Source of the DNA: Chiloscyllium plagiosum
Lineage: Eukaryota
Direction of reading: 5' to 3'
Assembly: GCF_004010195.1 (NCBI RefSeq)
Contig: NC_057718.1
Coordinates: forward strand, 80,300,116-80,364,115
Length of the DNA: 64,000 nt
A program made the translations under genes and the position numbers. Within the stretch, counting starts at the first letter, position 1. Each line of letters opens with the position of its first letter. This document shows positions 6,202 through 64,000 of the stretch, piece after piece. A model generated the notes under the pieces. It worked only from the letters and a program-made list of their open reading frames with translations. It did no database searches and was not told the origin of the DNA.

Positions 6202-9200
6202 GACCATAAGACTATAAGATATAGGAGCAGAAATTAGGCCATTCAGCCCATCGAGTCTGCCCCACCATTCAATCATTTTTCAACCCCATTTTTCCGCTTT
6301 CTCCCTGTAACCCTTGATCCCCATGAACCTAACTTCGTCATCAAAATACTCAATGACCTGGCCTCCACAGCCTCCTGTGGAAATGAATTCCATCGATTCA
6401 GCATTCTCTGGCTGAAGAAGTTTCTCCTTATCTCCATTCTAAAAGGTCTTCGTTTCACTCTAAGGCTGTGCCCTTGGGTCCTAGTCTCTCTTACCATGGA
6501 AATATCTTCCTAACATCAATTCTGTCCAGGCCATTCAGTATTCCGTATGTTTCAATTAAATATCCCCTCATCCTTCTAAATTCCATCGAGTACGACCAAA
6601 GGTCCTCAAACGTTTCTCATAAATTAAGCTTTACATTCCTGGGACCGTTCCTGAGATATGGGGTCCAAAACTGCACACAATACTCCAAGTGTGGCTTGAC
6701 CAGAGCCTTGCTGAGCCTCCGACTGCTTTTCTATTCAAGTCCTCTCAAAATAAATGCCATCATTGCATTTGCCTTCCTAACTACTGCCTCAACCTGCAAG
6801 TTTACTTTGAGAGAATCCTGGATGAGAACACCTAAGACTCTCATCACTTCAGTCTTCTGAATTGTCTCCACATTTAGAAAATAGTCCATGCCTCAAAGTG
6901 CATGACCTCACACTTGTACTTCATCAGCCACTTCTTTGCCCACTCATGACCTGTCCAAATCCTTCTGCAGCCCTCCCGCCTCCTCAATGCTACCTGTTCC
7001 TCTACTTACTTTTGTACCATCTGCAAACTTACTCAGAATGCCCTCACCTCCTTCATCTAGATCGTTAATGTATAAAGTGAAAAGTTTGGTCCCAACACTG
7101 AGCTTTGCAGAACACCACTTGTCACCGGCTGCCATCCTGAAAAGGACCATTTTATCTCCACTGTCTGCTTCCTGCCAGAGCCAAGCTTCTACTCATGCTA
7201 GCAGCATGCTTCTAACACCATGGGCCCTTATCTTACTCAGTAGCCTCTTGTGCAGCACCTTATCAAAGACCTTCTTGAAGTCCAGGTAGATAACATCCAT
7301 TGGCTCTCCGTGGTCTAACCTGCTTGTTACTTCTTCAAAGAATTCTAGCAGATTTGTCAGGCATGACCACCCCTTGATGACCATGCTGACTTTGCCCTAT
7401 TTTACCACACACTTACAAATATTCAGAAATCTCATCCTTCTCTATGGATTCCAGGATCTTATCCATGACCAAGGTTAGGCTAATGGGTCTATAATTGTCT
7501 GTCTTTTGCCTGACTCCCTTTTTGAACAGGGGTGTCACATTAGCAATTTTCCAGTCCTCTGGGACCCTCCCTGATTGTAGCAATTCCTGAACGATCACCA
7601 TGAACACTTCCATTATCTCTTCAGCTATCTCCCTTAGAACTCTGGGGTGCAGTTCATCTGGTTCAGGTGATTTATCCATCTTCAAGTCATTCAGTTTTCC
7701 TAGTATCTTCTCGTTGGTGATGCCACCATATTCAGCTCTGCCCCCTCACTGTCTTGAATTTTTGGGATATTACTCGTGTCTTCTACCATGAAGACCGATA
7801 CAAAGTAATTATTTAGTTCCTCAGCTATTTCCTTGTTCCCCACTACTATCTCTCCAATGTCATTTTCCAGTGACCCAATGTCCACTTTTGCCTCTTTTTT
7901 CCTTTATTTACTCACTAACTTACCCTCATATTCAATCTTCTCCCTCCTTTTATTTTTACACTCTGTTGGTCTTTGTAAGCTTTCCAATCCTCTGGCTTCC
8001 CACTGCTCTTTGCCACATTATATACTTTCTCTTTTGCTTTTATACTATCCCTGACTTCCCTAGTCAGCCATGGTTGCCTCATCCTCACTATAGCATGCTT
8101 CTTTTTCCTCGGGATCAACCTCTGCTGTGTCCCCTGAATTACTCCCAGAAACTCCTGCCATTGCTGTTCCACTGTCTTTCCTGCTAGGAGCCTCTCCCAG
8201 TCAGTTCTACCCAGCTCCTCCCTCATGCCTTTGTAGTTGCGTTTATTCAACTGTAATATCGTTACCTCTGACTCTATCTTCTCCCTCTCAAATTGCAAAG
8301 TAAATTCAATCATTTTATGATCACTGCCTCCTAAGGGTTCCTTCACTTGAAGCTCCTGCCTCATTGCACAAAACTAAATCCAGTATTGCCTGTTCCCTAG
8401 TGGGCTCCATCACAAGCTGCGCCAAAAAGCCATCTCATACACATTCCACAAATTCCTTTTCTTGCAACCCACCAACCTGATTTTCCCAGTCCACCTGCAT
8501 ATTCGAAATCCCCCATGATCACTGAAACTTTGCCTTTCCTACACATCTTTTCTATCGCCTGGTGTATCTTGCAACCCAACTCCTGATTATTGTTTGGAGG
8601 CCTGTACATAACTCCAACTATGGTTTTTTCACCTTTGCAGGTCCTCAATTGTACCCACAAAGAATCTACACCATCTGACCCTACTTTGTTTCTTACTATA
8701 GATTTAATTGCATTTCTTACTAATAAGGCAACCCCACACCACTCTGTTCACCTGCCTATCTTTTCAATAGGATGTTTGTCCTTGAATATTCAGCTACCAA
8801 TCCCGATCCCTTGCAGCCACATCTCCATGATACCCACCACATCTTAGCTGCCAATTTCGATCTGCGCCACAAGCTCATTTACCTTGTTTCTTATACAGCG
8901 TGCATTCAGATACAACACCTTCAGTCCTGTATTAACCATCCCTCTTCTCATTGTCATTTGTTTGTCCAGAGTGCTTGACGCTTGATTGCTAACCCTTTCT
9001 ATACACTCTGCCCTATTTATGTCTGCACTGAAGATTTTAATAACCTCTCCTAAGTTCTGCACTCTTGCTTCCTCCTTTAATTTGGGTTTACTGATTTCCC
9101 CAATAACTGATCCCCCCCCACCCCAACCATTTAGTTTAAAGCCATGTCGACGGCCCGAGTTTTGTGATTCCATAGGCCTCTGGTCCCAGCACAGTTCAGA

Positions 9201-9305
9201 TGAAGACTGTCCCATCGGAACAGGACCCTTCTTCCCCAGTACTGGTACCAATTTCCCATGAATTCAAACCCATTTCTCCCACACCAACCTGAGCCACATA
9301 TTTTG
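6202..9305 (-). mobile_element. Near full-length CR1 LINE, decayed
   Basis: APE endonuclease (LKVLYLNARCIRNK, GVMYRPP, IMGDF, GSDH) and RT (NYRPISLT, SCLTNLLEFFEEVT, YINDL, KFADGTK) fragments; 3' tail at ~6202. Confidence 0.92.
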
Positions 9306-37122: not shown

Positions 37123-37332
37123 GGCAGTGACTGTAATGAGGTCAACCAAGTGGACCACACAGAATGCATCCTCTGACTGGGGCTGTTAATCTGGTCCAAT
37201 CAGAGCCAACTCTCAGAGTGTCAGACACTCTGAGAGCTGGCTGTGACAGAGCTGGACCAGTGTCAAGAACTTTTCACATGTAAAGAAAGGGTGAGTCAGA
37301 GACAGGATAGCAGCCTCTGTGGAATTATTTAA
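37123..37332 (+). repeat. Gypsy 5' LTR
   Basis: Similar to 44780-44985 and to the LTR starting at 60635. Confidence 0.8.
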
Positions 37333-44779: not shown

Positions 44780-44985
44780 TGTAGTAATTATAATGAGATC
44801 TGCCAGGTGGACCCCATCTGTTCCAATCAGGGAGCCCTGGCTGACAGATTAAAAAGTGGAGTGAGAGACATTCTGACACACTGAGAACTGGCTCTGAAGG
44901 AACTGGATCAGTTTCAAGGACTTTCTATGTGTAACTAAAGTGTGACAGGGTGACAGTATACTGGCCTCTGTGGAGTTTCTTTTCA
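44780..44985 (+). repeat. Gypsy 3' LTR
   Basis: TGTAGT...TTTCA, preceded by purine tract gagggacaggga. Confidence 0.85.
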
Positions 44986-45061
44986 CTTCACAATCAGCTA
45001 ACTTCACTCAGCGAGTCTGATCCCTGAGGTTTTCCCCAGACTTCAGTTTTGCTGAGCTACA

Positions 45062-46994
45062 TTAAGCAAAGGTGTAGACAGGATAGATCGAGTGAATCCT
45101 GAGTACAGTATAAAGGCAGTAGGAGTATACTTAAGAGGGAAATGAGGAGGGTAAAAAGGGGACATGACATAGCTTTGGCAAATAGAGTTAAGGAGAATCC
45201 AAAGGGTTTTTACAAATACATTAAGGAAAGAAGGGTAACTAGGGAGAGAATAGGGCCCCTCAAACATCAGCAAGGCGGCCTTTATGGGGGAGATACTAAA
45301 CGAGTATTTTGCATCAGTGTTTACTGTGGAAAAGGACATGGAAGATATAAAATGTAGGGAATTAGATGGTGACATCTTTAAAAATATCCATATTACAGAG
45401 GAGGAAGTGCTGAATGTCTTGAAACACATAAAAGTGGATAAATCCCCAGGACCTGATCAGTGTACCCTAGAACTCTGGGAAGCTGGGGAAGTGATTGCTC
45501 AGCCTTTTACTGAGATATTTGTATCATTGATAGTCACAGGTGAGGTGCCAGAAGACTGGAGGTCGGCAAACGTGGTACCACTCTTTAAGAAAGGTGGTAA
45601 GGATAAGCCAGGGAACTATTAGACCAGTGAGCCTGACCTTGGTGGTGGACACATTGGAGGGAATCCTGAGGGACAGGATGTACATGCATTTGGAAAGGCA
45701 AGGACTGATTAGGGATAGTCAACATGGCTTTATGCATGAAAAATCATGTCTCACAAACGTGATTGAGTTTTTTGAAGAAGTAACAAAGAGGATTGATGAG
45801 GGCAGAGAGGTAGATGTGATCCATATGGATTTCAGTAAGGCATTTGACAAGGTTCCCCATGGGAGACTGGTGAGCAAGGTTGGATCTCATGGAATACAGA
45901 GAGAACTCGCCATTTGGATATAGAACTGGCTCAAAGGTGGAAGACAGGTGGTGGTGGTGGAAGGTTGTTTTTCAGACTGGAGGCCTGTGACCAGTGCAAT
46001 GCCACTAGGATCAGTGCTGGGTCCACTACTTTTAGTCATTTATATAAATGATTTGGATGTGATCACAAGAGGTATAGTTAGTACGTTTGCAGATGACACC
46101 AAAATTGGAAGTGTAGTGGACAGCGAAGAGGACTACCTCAGATTACAACAGGATCTTGACCAGATGGGCCAATGGGATGAGAAGTGGCAGATGGAGTTTA
46201 ATTTCTTAAATGTGAGGTGCTGCATTTTGAAAAAGCATTTCTTAACAGGGCTTATACACTTAATGGTAATGCCCTAGAGAGTGTTGCTGAACAAAGAGCG
46301 TAGGTTCATAGCTCCTTGTAAGTGGAGTTGCAGGTGGCTAGGATAGTGAAGAAGGCGTTTGGTATGCTTTCCTTTATTGGTCAGAGTATTGAGTACAGGA
46401 ATTGGGAGATCATGTTGAGGCTGTACAGGACATCGGTTAGGCCACTGTTGGAATATTGTGTGCAATTCTAGTCTCCTTCCGATTGGAAAGATGTTTTGAA
46501 ATTTGAAAGGGTTCAGAAAAGATTTACAAGGATGTTGCCAGGGTTGGAGGATTTAAGCGATAGAGAGAGGTTGAATAGGCTATGGCTATTTTCCCTGGAG
46601 CATCGGAGGCTGATGGGTTGCCTTATAGAGGTTTATAAAATCATGAGGGGCATAGAAAGGATAAATATACAAAGTCTTTTCCCTGGGGTAGGGGAGTCCA
46701 GAACTAGAGGATAGGTTTAGGATAAGAGGGGAAAGATATAAAAGAGACCTAAGGGGCAACGTTTTCACTCAGAGGGTGGTATGTATATGGAATGAGCTGC
46801 CAGAGGAAGTAGTGGAGGCTAGTACAATTGCAACATTTAAAAGGCATCTGGAAGGGTACATGAATTGGAAGGGTTTGGAGGGATATGGTCCAGGTGCTGG
46901 CAGGTGGGATTAGCTTGGGTTGGGATATCTGGTTGGCGTGGACGGGTTGGACCGAAGGGTCTGTTTCCGTGCTGTACATCTCTATGACTCTATG
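45062..46994 (+). mobile_element. CR1 LINE (tether, RT, 3' end)
   Basis: [46 protein letters not shown]; tail ctatgactctatg. Confidence 0.95.
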
Positions 46995-59809: not shown

Positions 59810-60746
59810 GATGTTATGTCTGGAGGCCAGGACTGGACACCGACAATAGCCGTGTTGTGGGGCAGTATCAACAAAGACAAAAATTACCATCAGCATTTCC
59901 CCTACATTGAACCCTGGACTCAGCTGCACATCGGCTATGCCAATCCTTTCAAGAGCTTTATGTTTTTAGTCACTGTGGACACCCATTCAAAGTGGTTGGA
60001 CTTGAATTGAGTTCACTCGAAACCAAAACATTCCAGTTTTGGTTTGATAATAGGATCACCTTTCATGCAACTACAGAGACAGCTCCTGCAGAGTGGCTAA
60101 TGGGGAAAAGATTCTGCACCAGTTTAAACCTGATCTTCCTGGACCTTAGGAGTAAGGTGGGGTGTCATGATGAAACAGCGTTGGGAATGCCAATGCTGAC
60201 ACAAGACTCCTCTGCATTGATAAGAGGCATGGTCGACGCGAGGTCAGGTCCCATGACATACAAAATTTGGGTAAGAGAGGCAGTCCAGGACAAGCACATG
60301 GAGCAGATGAAAGCTGCAACCTTGCAAAGGCGGCAGAAGCAAAACATGCTCAGCCCCTTAGAACATCTGGCAAGGTTGGCAGTTCTAATGGGTTCTCCCC
60401 ATCCGTCTAGCGTTAAAGAAACCTCTAAGTATAAGATGGACATATAAGATGTCACAGACTTGACACTGTTATTACCTGAAGAATTTCTTTCAAGATGCTC
60501 CTGGTGCAAAGGCCAGTCTCATCCCAGTACACACTGCCAGTATAAGTGGCAGAGTTAGTGGAACTGGGACTGGTACAAAGAGAAGCTGCAGGAAAAAGAA
60601 CGTGCCTATGTCCCAGGACTTAAAGAGGTAGGGATGTAGTGATTGGAATGAGGTCAACCAGGTAGATCTCATGGAAAATGATTTCCCTGATTGAGGCTGT
60701 TAACTTGGTCCAATCAGGTAACCCTGACTGACAGATCAACAGGAGT
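59810..60746 (+). mobile_element. Gypsy 3' fragment (integrase remnant, PPT, 5' half of the 3' LTR)
   Basis: PWTQLHIGYANPFKSFMFLVTVDTHSKWL and HATTETAPAEWLMG; PPT aaagaggtaggga; LTR starts TGTAGTG at 60635; same family as 37123-44985. Confidence 0.85.
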
Positions 60747-62560
60747 AAAATTCCTTTCTTCCTGGTGGTGAAAATTGAATAAAGATTCGTACACTTTGTG
60801 TCTCTCACTGTGTCTCACACCTGCACACACAACATGGGTGCTGGGGAAAAAAATAAGCACTACCGCAGTTAGGCGGTAGTGTGGGGGTTAAATATAAAAA
60901 AAAGATAAACAGATCCCCTTCACTGTTTGATCACAAGAAAAAAAAAGAAAAAAATCAACAGGAGTAAAATTCCTTTCTTCCTGGTGGTGGAAATTGAATA
61001 AAGATTTGTGCACCTTGTGTCTTTCACTGCATTTCACACCTGCACACACACATGGGTGCTGGGGAAAAAATAAGCACTAAACAAAAGAAAAAAAAATCAA
61101 CAGGAGTATTGGAGAGATGGGAACCGCAGGGAGTGGAGTGTATTATTTCCCCTTTCAACTCTGTTTTAATTTAATCCCTGCCCACCCCTTCACTGTTTAA
61201 TCATGCAGCATTGCCCTTTGATGTGAAGGGTACTGCTTGTCACTGGCCACTCGAGTGTTTCCTTCTTGCTGGTGGTGGAAATTTGAATGAAGATTCGTGC
61301 ACCTTGTGTCTTTCACTGAAAAAAAAATAAAAAGGAATGTCAGACATACTGACATTGAGAGCTGGCTCTCAGGGAGCTGGATCAGTGTCAAGGATTTTCC
61401 AAGTGTAAATAAAGGGCGATTTGGTGATGGGATACCAGCCTCTGTGGAGTTACTTCACGAACCAGACGGGTCTTTATGACAAGCGATAGACACAGACATT
61501 TTCACTGTTACTCAGATTAGCTTTTAATTCCAGATTTAGGAATTGAAACTAAATTTCACCAGTTGCTGTGGTGGTATTTGAACTAAAAAAAAAATCAACA
61601 GGAGTAAAGATTTGTGCACCTTGTGTCTTTCACTGTGTCTCACACCTGCGCACACACACAACATGGGTGCTGGGGAAAGAATAAGCACTAAAAAAAAGAA
61701 AAAAAATCAACAGGAGTATTGAAGAGATGGGCACCGCAGGGAGTGGAGTGTATTATTTCCCCCTCCAACTCTATTTTGATTTAATCCCTGCCCTCCCCTT
61801 CACTGTTTAATCACACAGCATTGCCCTTTGATGTGAAGGGCACTGCTTGTCACTGGCCACTGGGGTGTTTCTTTTCTTCCTGGTGGTGGAAATTGAATAA
61901 AGATTCAGGCACCTTGTGTCTTTCACTGTGTCTCACACCTGCGCACACACACCATGGGTGCTGGGGAGAAAAAAAGCACTACTGCAAAAAAAAAAGAAGA
62001 AAAAAAATCAACAGGAGCAGAGTGCAACTCTATTTTGATTTAATCCCTGGGAGCAGAGTGCAACTCTATTTTGATTTAATCCCTGCCCTTCCCTTCACTG
62101 TTTGATCACATAGCATTGCCCTTTGATGTGAAGGGCACTGCTTGTCACAGGTCACTTGAGTGTTTCTTTTCTTCCTGGTGGTGAAAATTGATTAAAGATT
62201 TGTAAACCTTGTGTCTTTCACTGTGTCTTACACCTGCACACACATGACATGGGTGCTGGGGAAAAATAAGCACTACCACAGTTAGGCGATATTGTGGGGG
62301 TAAAGAGAAAAAAAAACAGGAGTGTCAGAGGTTCTGTTTACTCTGAGAGCAAGAAAAACAAAATTTTAAAAAATGAACAGGAGTATTGGAGAGGTGGGCA
62401 CTGCAGGGAGTGGAGTGTATTATTTCCCCCTCCAACTCTATTTTGATTCAATCCCTCCCCTCCCCTTCACTGTTTTATTACGCGGCGTTGCCTTTTGAGA
62501 AGGGCACTGCTTCTCACCGGCCACTCGGGTGTTTTCTTTCTTCCTGGTGGCAGAATATAA
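60747..62560 (+). mobile_element. Tandem array of 5'-truncated Tx1-clade non-LTR retrotransposon 3' ends inside a Gypsy LTR
   Basis: About 8-9 units, most A-tailed, separated by (TC)AACAGGAG(T); the longest units encode ERWAPQGVECIISPSNSILI*, a Tx1-like ORF2 C-terminus, then a hairpin-rich 3' UTR. Confidence 0.75.
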
Positions 62561-63214
62561 ATAAAGTTTTAAACACTTATGCTAGCTGGGTCAATGTTGT
62601 GGTTGCATAAATAAAGGTTGACTTGGTGAGAGATACTAGTCTTTGTGGAGCTATTTCAGTTGGCAAGCTATGCAGGTATCTCCTTGTGTGTACACAGCAG
62701 CCTTCCATGCTAGCATGAGTCTTCAAAGACCACATCGGAGATCTCTGGAACAGAGCGAGCAAGTGACCCTGCCTTCTGGTAAGGTGAGATCTGCAATACC
62801 CTGTCCCTTTGCTCTGTAGCTCCATTTACAGACAGTGACTCATCACGTGCCTCTGTGATTATATTGGGTACCGTCCTTAGATATTTCTTATGAGTTCCTA
62901 CATGCTTCAGAGAAGAGGTTAATTATAATATGTCAATCATGGTCCTATGACATAAAATGGACCTTAACTACAATTTTGCTGACAGGTAGGTAGGCCATGA
63001 GCAACCTAAACAGTTCTTTAAAATAAAACTGCTTAGAAAACAACTCAAACCATTTTAATGACATAACCAAGATGGGATTAAGTCCCTACAAAACATAATC
63101 CAGGTTTCTACCAGTTGATCCAAGACATGCCCTATGGGAACATTTCCCCTTCGCTTTTCAGATAGTTTAATGTAGAAACCAACCAATTTTCTGTTCTCCC
63201 ATAACCTGGAGACA

Positions 63215-64000
63215 GCTGAGGTAATTGAATGGACTAAAAATTGATAAATTGAAGGTGCTTGAAAGCTTCACTGTAACAAAACTAGATAAAGCACCAGATC
63301 TGCTTGGAATGCATCTTTGGTTGTTGAGTGAAGCAAGAAAAGAAACTGCAGAGCATTTTCCAATTTGTCCCCTGGGTGTGATGCCAGAAGATTGGAGAAT
63401 TGTAAATGTTGCACCCTTCTTCAAAAAATGTGCAAAGGTAAACTCAGCAACTACAAGCCAGTCAATTTAACTTTGGTGCAGAAACCTTTAGAAATGATTA
63501 TCCAGGACAAAATTAACAGTTGCTCAGACTAATGTGGATTAATCAAGGAGGATTTGATAAAGGCAAATCGTGTTTAACTAATTTTATTCAGTTTTTCTTA
63601 ATGAGATAATAGAGATGAGGTTAATGTGGTTGTTAAGTATACATGACTTCCAAAAGGTTTTAAGCCCAACATAATAAGCTTGTTAGCAAAACTGAATTTT
63701 GTGGAACAGGAGGGTAAATAATGGAACAATTATGAAGTTGGCTAAAAGACATGTAACAGACACTGGTGTTAAAAGAATGTTTTACAAGGTGCACAGTGAG
63801 GTTCTACTGGAGTCAGTGCTAAAATCATTGATTTTATTATATATATTAATTACTTAAAATTGAGCTATCCGGGCACTACTTCAAACTTTGCAAATATGAT
63901 AGTGTTATAATCAGTGAGGAGGGTGTGATAGACTTCAATGGAACAGACACAGACTGGTGAAACAGACAAATATGTGGCACACTCAATTTAACTCAGAAGG
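63215..64000 (+). mobile_element. Old CR1 LINE RT region (runs off window)
   Basis: MPEDWRIVNVAPFFKK, plus GKSCLTN- and YIN-like remnants. Confidence 0.8.

Follow-up and report, generated by a model that had tools for sequence, protein, structure and literature searches.

Tandem arrays of a Tx1-clade LINE with shared 5' junctions and a preference for the TATA box of a Gypsy-type LTR in Chiloscyllium plagiosum

In a 64,000-nucleotide stretch of the 3.56-Gb genome assembly of Chiloscyllium plagiosum (contig NC_057718.1, positions 80,300,116 to 80,364,115; hereafter the window, numbered from its first letter), the long terminal repeat (LTR) of a Gypsy-type retrotransposon is interrupted by a tandem array of 5'-truncated units of a long interspersed nuclear element (LINE) at 60635..62658. 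By its sequence, the array belongs to an abundant LINE of the Tx1 clade. This LINE has a strong site preference for the TATA box of the LTR, not the strict recognition of AACAGGAGT that the initial annotation had proposed. The array itself is present as that annotation described, with the corrections given below. Such arrays have probably grown by insertion of RNAs from other loci, whose complementary DNA (cDNA) annealed to a resident copy downstream of the target site. This reading is drawn from 5' junctions that are shared by units with different tails, and from a foreign tail on a local junction in module 3 of the window array.

Shared 5' junctions and the growth of arrays

In a first set of loci, 48 of 165 pairs of units from the same array had an identical 5' truncation point, against 28 of 10,861 pairs drawn from different arrays. 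The corresponding counts in a larger set were 68/279 within loci and 66/21,876 between loci, with same-junction pairs at 30 of 46 multi-unit loci, and a held-out set gave 37/141 and 22/3,099, with such pairs at 14 of 19 loci. Same-junction units are nearly as diverged from each other as unrelated copies (92.3% versus 90.3% identity), and their A tails differ in 29 of 30 pairs.

The model for R1 tandems, in which a AACAGGAGT-specific endonuclease directs independent 5'-truncated insertions into regenerated target site duplications (TSDs), is a very unlikely account of these arrays. Every module of the window array is indeed bounded by the private TSD variant of its host LTR copy, many within-locus pairs have different junctions (211 of 279), R1 tandems are described as arising by insertion into the 5' TSD (PMC2718515), and the young-first order of subfamilies reported below fits independent insertions. 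However, junctions that are identical in 24% of within-array and 0.3% of between-array pairs cannot arise by independent truncation, which explains the different-junction modules only and is refuted as the sole mechanism by junction sharing. The proposal of the initial annotation that each TSD regenerates the target and so builds tandems holds for TSD re-use, with precedents in R1 and SINEU-3, but as a full account it is insufficient because it leaves shared 5' junctions, age polarity and the LTR-derived leader unexplained.

Under the favoured reading, the APE endonuclease would nick the bottom strand at a TA/AA step in one of the TSDs, and an RNA from another locus would be reverse transcribed at the nick (target-primed reverse transcription). 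The cDNA would then displace the bottom strand of the resident unit or, for RNAs led by the R region of the LTR (R), that of R. Resolution of the top strand tens to hundreds of bases downstream would in effect create a long target duplication, whereby the new unit would take over the start point of the old one. Where no pairing occurs, an ordinary new 5' truncation would result. Two loci look like direct products of such long-duplication joining: at L172, 39 bp of target plus R are duplicated on both sides, and at L129 the duplication is ~440 bp long.

Discordance at subfamily-marking sites, counted in one same-junction pair per locus, forms a gradient from the junction outward, with 6/52 (23.5 expected), 10/55 (26.5), 19/108 (50.8), 56/146 (69.0) and 30/87 (41.9), while the controls, different-junction neighbours and pairs from different loci, are flat. 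The two subfamilies differ in age, as mean pairwise identity among unselected units is 95.7% for one and 88.7% for the other. In 14 of 15 mixed arrays the young subfamily occupies the TATA-proximal position (p = 0.001), and in the four of 31 same-junction groups that mix both subfamilies it comes first every time; 157 of the 361 units were unclassed or mixed in this classing.

A scheme in which units insert independently and gene conversion between neighbours then spreads one junction through an array is highly improbable. Conditioning on a shared junction alone does yield a decay of identity away from the junction, as observed. Gene conversion would find just 12-14 bp of homology left of the junction, though, and leaves the long target-plus-R duplication of L172 unexplained. 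Moreover, different-junction units of one array are not homogenised, with discordances of 79/178 (82.5 expected), 87/175 (81.1) and 66/136 (64.0).

Local copying, by re-insertion of an array transcript in cis or by unequal crossing-over that keeps the junction, is less easily set aside, yet still unlikely. It is consistent with the slightly higher identity of same-junction units and with their larger share of rare variants (0.0064 versus 0.0010 per base). It also accommodates same-junction pairs off target, where a second independent hit would be unlikely. Against it stand the tails that differ in all but one pair, the four groups that combine subfamilies of different age at one junction, and the tail of module 3, which comes from another chromosome; furthermore, a transcript begun at the LTR initiator would not contain the junction. 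Local duplication probably adds some same-junction cases, such as L145, whose paired units have identical tails as DNA duplication predicts. The off-target tandems (L037, L252 and L012) lie at non-LTR sites, each with a TSD of its own, a pattern suggesting that sites which already hold a copy are re-hit or completed more easily than empty ones.

Several observations weigh against growth by annealing of foreign cDNA, the identical tails of L145 among them. In a held-out young sample the gradient is unclear, discordance being about half of expectation throughout (0/21, 2/10, 11/59, 29/124, 10/47), and differences at all sites are flat. Twenty-seven of the 31 same-junction groups consist of a single subfamily; these groups and the flat held-out profile fit local copying as well as they fit foreign RNAs of the same age. 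A divergence-based test of polarity, since replaced by the subfamily test, was weak (15 versus 8, p = 0.07). In the window, modules 3, 5 and 7 share a junction yet are not adjacent, so inner TSDs must be used too. The donor locus of the module 3 tail, L181, has no unit ending where the LINE part of module 3 ends, which calls for an intermediate source or a template jump. Finally, several R-led copies (L161, L168 and L170) mismatch the R downstream of them.

The window array, its host LTR and the target site

A purine tract precedes the host LTR, which begins at 60635 and is interrupted after ATCAACAGGAGT, as initially annotated. Its 5' half (U3; 60635..60746, forward strand, like all features of the array) contains CCAAT at 60710, a degenerate TATA box at about 60733-60740 and the first copy of the target duplication at 60735. 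Within the LTR promoter region named in the initial annotation, the site is the TATA box. The motif AACAGGAG occurs at 60738, 60957, 61099, 61597, 61709, 62010, 62315 and 62376 (previously 62375), each time after the first preceded by an A-rich tail; the T said to follow it is replaced by C at 62010. The window holds 11 matches to this motif where 3.4 are expected, a number reached in 0 of 100 shuffles.

Seven copies of the LTR-private target duplication ATCAACAGGAG, one of them changed, split 60735-62569 into seven modules. Module 1 (60747..60953) consists of a 140-bp LINE 3' end with its terminal stem, an A tail, a short extra LINE piece and a second A tail, and has the same 5' junction as module 2 (60954..61095 with its local TSD), a 110-bp LINE 3' fragment with an A tail. 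The third local TSD and the LINE part of module 3 (61096..61326), comprising the C-terminus of open reading frame (ORF) 2 and a 3' untranslated region (UTR) polyadenylated early, share their 5' junction with modules 5 and 7. Module 3 continues in a 3' transduction (61327..61593) of a foreign target copy, a foreign LTR 3' half, 130 bp of foreign flank and an A tail, with the whole LTR half and flank at 61327-61585. The transduction matches locus L181 on contig C34 (chromosome 34) at 247 of 260 bases (95%). There the flank continues into unique DNA, and the junction of module 3 is missing; a third copy of the transduced segment lies on C25. Module 4 (61594..61705) is a 90-bp LINE fragment and module 5 (61706..62006) a 265-bp LINE 3' end, each behind a local TSD and followed by an A tail.

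Module 6 (62007..62372), likewise behind a local TSD, is a LINE 3' end with a 33-bp internal duplication and an A tail, then a foreign piece (62308-62350) of target sequence and 30 bp of LTR R that ends in another A tail. The eighth motif, at 62315, falls in this piece; it lacks the private ATC of the host LTR copy and was likely brought from another locus. The LTR had been taken to resume at this motif; its remaining 3' part instead lies at 62580..62658, after a deletion. Module 7 (62373..62569, including its local TSD), whose tail and last TSD are deleted, is the most diverged unit, with 87% identity to a full-length copy versus 91-94% for modules 3 and 5, and is likely the founder of the array. 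No single unit encodes the peptide quoted in the initial annotation (the units read ERWEPQ..., KRWAPQ... and ERWALQ...), which is nonetheless the ORF2 C-terminus of the family. Its description of the 3' UTR as hairpin-rich was overstated, as there is one 9-bp terminal stem and the whole-UTR fold has z = -1.0; compensatory changes in the stem beyond those of CpG type were not found in 221 units.

An assembly artefact, through a collapsed or mis-joined repeat, has an almost negligible probability. Assembly gaps do lie near several arrays, and no read or contig was found to span the whole array (60635-62658). Nevertheless, the units differ by 6-16% and have distinct tails, like architecture occurs at dozens of loci, and contigs of another run (X4) are identical to 60875-60983 and 61530-61631 across tail-TSD-unit junctions, bridging into modules 2 and 4 without a difference.

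The array follows the degenerate 3' end of a Gypsy-type internal region (59911..60634, forward strand) that terminates in the purine tract ahead of the 3' LTR. In most of 11 loci, the same LTR lies 500-700 bp downstream of stretches homologous to this region; an ORF within the window segment gave no Pfam match. Related LTR copies lie on the forward strand at 44780..44981, with the site empty, and at 37123..37330, with the TATA region deleted. Both are free of the LINE, which has no other match in the window, in agreement with the initial annotation. Degenerate LINE fragments at 45050-45600 and 63150-64000, which are presumably CR1-like, flank the region.

Ten natural empty copies delineate the host repeat as an LTR of ~235 bp, with CCAAT at ~76, TATA at ~102, an initiator-like TCACTC at ~129 and AATAAA at ~187, the promoter labels being putative and taken from known consensus. 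In four loci, two LTRs stand 3.8-4.9 kb apart around degenerate internal regions, and in the two-LTR copies a reverse transcriptase (RT) match (PF00078, E 8e-11) lies upstream of a weak integrase-core match (E 9e-4, below cut-off). The purine tract, the two LTRs and the order of RT before integrase point to a Gypsy-type host element. Several copies (L137, L181 and the L160 region) have a U3 inversion between near-palindromic CTGATTGG/CCAATCAG boxes at LTR positions ~55-90.

The samples in which target preference was scored were not random draws but came from the 40 top-scoring among thousands of candidates, a further point that counts against the reading. Among 38 loci picked by the LINE 3' end only, the LTR 5' half lies directly upstream in 14 by automatic scoring; by eye, 18 were on target, 16 off and 4 unscorable. 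A second sample of 28 loci, from another subfamily and with the query's own locus and one duplicate removed, contained 12 on target, 10 off and 6 unscorable. Combined, 26 (automatic) to 30 (by eye) of the 56 scorable loci are on target, 10 of 66 being unscorable; lone LTR 3' halves were excluded from these counts because they are often transduced. Chance placement at the LTR would be well under 1%, given three LTRs in the 64-kb window. On-target insertions are all in sense orientation, join ~12-20 bases beyond a conserved pre-TATA motif (20 of the 28 located), and have TSDs of 12-16 bp that start in the TATA box. In the reverse test, with loci selected by the LTR, the LINE sits at +116 to +123 in 4 of 29, and others have one copy of a second element (see below), one bare A tail, one LINE behind another insertion and two other repeats. 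At L130 an A tract and a short duplication are all that the target site of the LTR holds, and at L110 and L127 an unrelated repeat lies in reverse orientation at or near it, hinting that the site is generally accessible.

The claim of targeting to one site therefore stands as a genome-wide enrichment at one position of a Gypsy-type LTR, but off-target flanks are also common, with only about half of the copies on target. Tx1 elements have been called target-specific when more than 20% of their flanks fall in one repeat (PMC4494074), a level that this LINE exceeds. With 26 of the 56 scorable loci off target by eye, it falls outside the strictly sequence-specific class (R2, Keno type). TSDs were found at 22 of 27 off-target sites (10-18 bp, one mismatch allowed). 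Of these 22, 18 have TAA near the start (control 19%) and none has AACAGG, and on-target LTRs tolerate altered sequence after TATA; both observations argue against the AACAGGAGT-specific endonuclease of the R1 tandem model and of the initial annotation. The cut motif looks like a TA/AA step. What raises the LTR site above millions of similar steps may be its wider context, promoter chromatin, tethering by the TATA-binding protein or pairing between RNA and target.

Family affiliation, leaders and promoter use

Membership in the Tx1 clade, as initially proposed, is borne out by the APE-RT region. An unbroken 636-aa frame from L171 has Xenopus Tx1 ORF2 as its best named match (52% identity over 98%), with E 2e-205; human L1 ORF2p, compared within a far smaller library, gave 4e-56. 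It clusters with Xenopus Tx1 and turtle proteins with SH-aLRT 100, in a quick, midpoint-rooted tree of 33 rows that had no named Keno, Kibi or Koshi rows and flagged the query for composition. A ray protein contains a 62%-identical piece of the LINE. A natural 7.1-kb copy (L031) has an ORF1 with a CCHC knuckle and an ORF2 with APE, RT and zf-RVT, interrupted by stops and frameshifts; none of 11 long copies is fully intact. In ORF2, PF03372 and PF00078 score above cut-off, and the ETH, GDFN, DHH and YADD motifs are found in natural copies. Four of nine long copies have the ORF1 knuckle, whose Pfam match (E 0.007) falls below cut-off. Poly(A) tails, TSDs and 5' truncation, hallmarks of LINEs, are all present. 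First-look candidates, which are lower bounds with 40 scored for each query, number at least 3,516 for the 3' end, at least 937 for inner ORF2 and at least 364 for the 5' UTR. Summed contig depths suggest tens of thousands of 3' ends, a figure that is not a copy number.

The 5' ends of long copies are derived from the LTR or from the LINE itself. Among 47 distinct full-length-type 5' ends, 27 have a self-derived leader and 20 LTR R, a ratio made meaningless by query bias, and none has an independent 5' end. They were read by eye, as an automatic classifier mislabelled 4 and missed 7 of the 47. The self-derived leaders are copies of the LINE 3' end, ~40 bp to more than 1.4 kb long, fused to an R remnant at a constant position; those within arrays often have the junction of their array (L031, L079, L082, L175, L176). 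Two of the 20 LTR-R leaders run seamlessly into U3 and TATA. Inside arrays at L164, L165, L166, L169 and L181, the LINE 5' leader also occurs as short, polyadenylated pieces (R and 60-160 bp more) that resemble aborted transcripts and have retrotransposed alone.

The insertion point falls between the TATA box and the initiator of the LTR. L181, which lies in the 3' LTR of a two-LTR element, has only short units and no full-length LINE, and the RNA donated to module 3 must therefore have come from the LTR promoter or from other read-through. Together, these features suggest that the LINE borrows the LTR promoter and that fragments are mobilised in trans. More tentatively, units between TATA and initiator might be transcribed from the LTR promoter or by read-through from the 5' LTR, dead fragments and whole arrays might be mobilised in trans, and the full-length leader might be worn down and renewed. 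In RNA run X21, 2,378 of ~13 million reads match the LINE, in sense orientation and near the A tail, and in run X22 none do. The X21 reads were rejected as evidence of expression or start sites, since oligo(dT) priming on genomic A tracts would give the same pattern; they are poly(A)-proximal and show no start site.

A second, non-coding element of ~2 kb has internal tandem repeats, a short tail and a leader resembling R of a second LTR type. This element, likely a non-autonomous partner, has ~2,000 first-look candidates, and the loci studied were L188-L206 and L230 (about 6960-9240, reverse strand). It adjoins an LTR half at the same TATA site in 13 of 18 loci, and it also makes same-junction tandems. 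At L228 and L231, copies of this element are followed by type-B R running into their own leader, in head-to-tail arrays of ~1.5-kb spacing mixed with LINE units.

It is possible, if on balance doubtful, that the LINE represents a promoterless Tx1 lineage living on LTR promoters, with resident copies or R as a landing pad, and that the partner element does likewise. Homology to the landing pad would complete second-strand joining, attract further insertions and renew a sacrificial 5' leader. Subfamilies would then have switched from R-derived to self-derived leaders as targets filled.

Precedents and implications

The closest named relative, Tx1L of Xenopus laevis (Swiss-Prot-derived entry P0185), likewise has two ORFs, APE and RT, and a target within another transposon, the DNA transposon Tx1D (PMC4494074). 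Unlike Tx1L, the LINE described here targets an LTR TATA box, with about half of its copies elsewhere, and the passages on Tx1L in that study mention neither shared-junction arrays nor a target-derived leader. The crocodilian elements Tx1-8_Crp and Tx1-4_AMi prefer specific groups of LTR retrotransposons, cluster with Keno and Tx1-Mar and have U1/U2-derived heads, and crocodilian SINEU-3 forms tandem copies around its TSD, with transcription from the flanking target suggested (PMC4494074). The LTR preference is thus alike, but the head of the present LINE is LTR R. The main text of the crocodilian study, which gives the LTR site in its supplements, describes no inheritance of junctions.

Drosophila R1, an APE-type element with a 14-bp TSD, is described as sending new copies into the 5' TSD, and some R1 RNAs carry target sequence that anneals to give precise junctions (PMC2718515). 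In that account the homology is to upstream target, and annealing is impossible with downstream cleavage. In the present LINE, by contrast, the homologous DNA lies downstream and is either a resident dead copy or R. Gilbert and colleagues reportedly described templated or chimeric L1 insertions formed by strand annealing in 2005. Annealing of L1 cDNA to nearby homologous DNA, with local duplication, has also been presented as a rare event (bioRxiv 10.1101/2024.08.27.596794); in L1 it takes place at dispersed sites, whereas here about two thirds of multi-unit loci would have this outcome. HeT-A and TART form head-to-tail arrays, rely on an external promoter and buffer erosion with a 5' copy of 3' sequence (PMC5537684). 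The arrays of the present LINE are analogous, as would be its suggested dependence on an outside promoter and its leader renewal, but HeT-A and TART are telomeric, jockey-type elements that lack TSDs and use the promoter in the 3' UTR of the upstream copy, unlike a LINE at an LTR TATA box.

LTR-preferring Tx1 elements and TSD-fed tandems have thus been published, while the TATA-box target, junction inheritance and the LTR-derived leader appear to be new. No description of this LINE family, of a TATA-box target, of an LTR-R leader or of inherited junctions was found in the literature, a search that lay outside Repbase and Dfam, which may hold the family or the site.

How LINEs join their 5' ends and prime the second strand is an open question, for which this family offers thousands of natural events. 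In these events, subfamily markers reveal where the joint lies, and the family points to homology-directed joining downstream of the nick, a route that models of R1 and R2 consider unavailable. 'Dead' 5'-truncated fragments can act as sources, and arrays of fragments of the same length can be counted neither as DNA duplicates nor as independent truncations. The endonuclease is a candidate TATA-biased targeting module. If the favoured reading is true, the family would be a clear case of a retroelement that parasitises the core promoter of another, likely silencing the host LTR.

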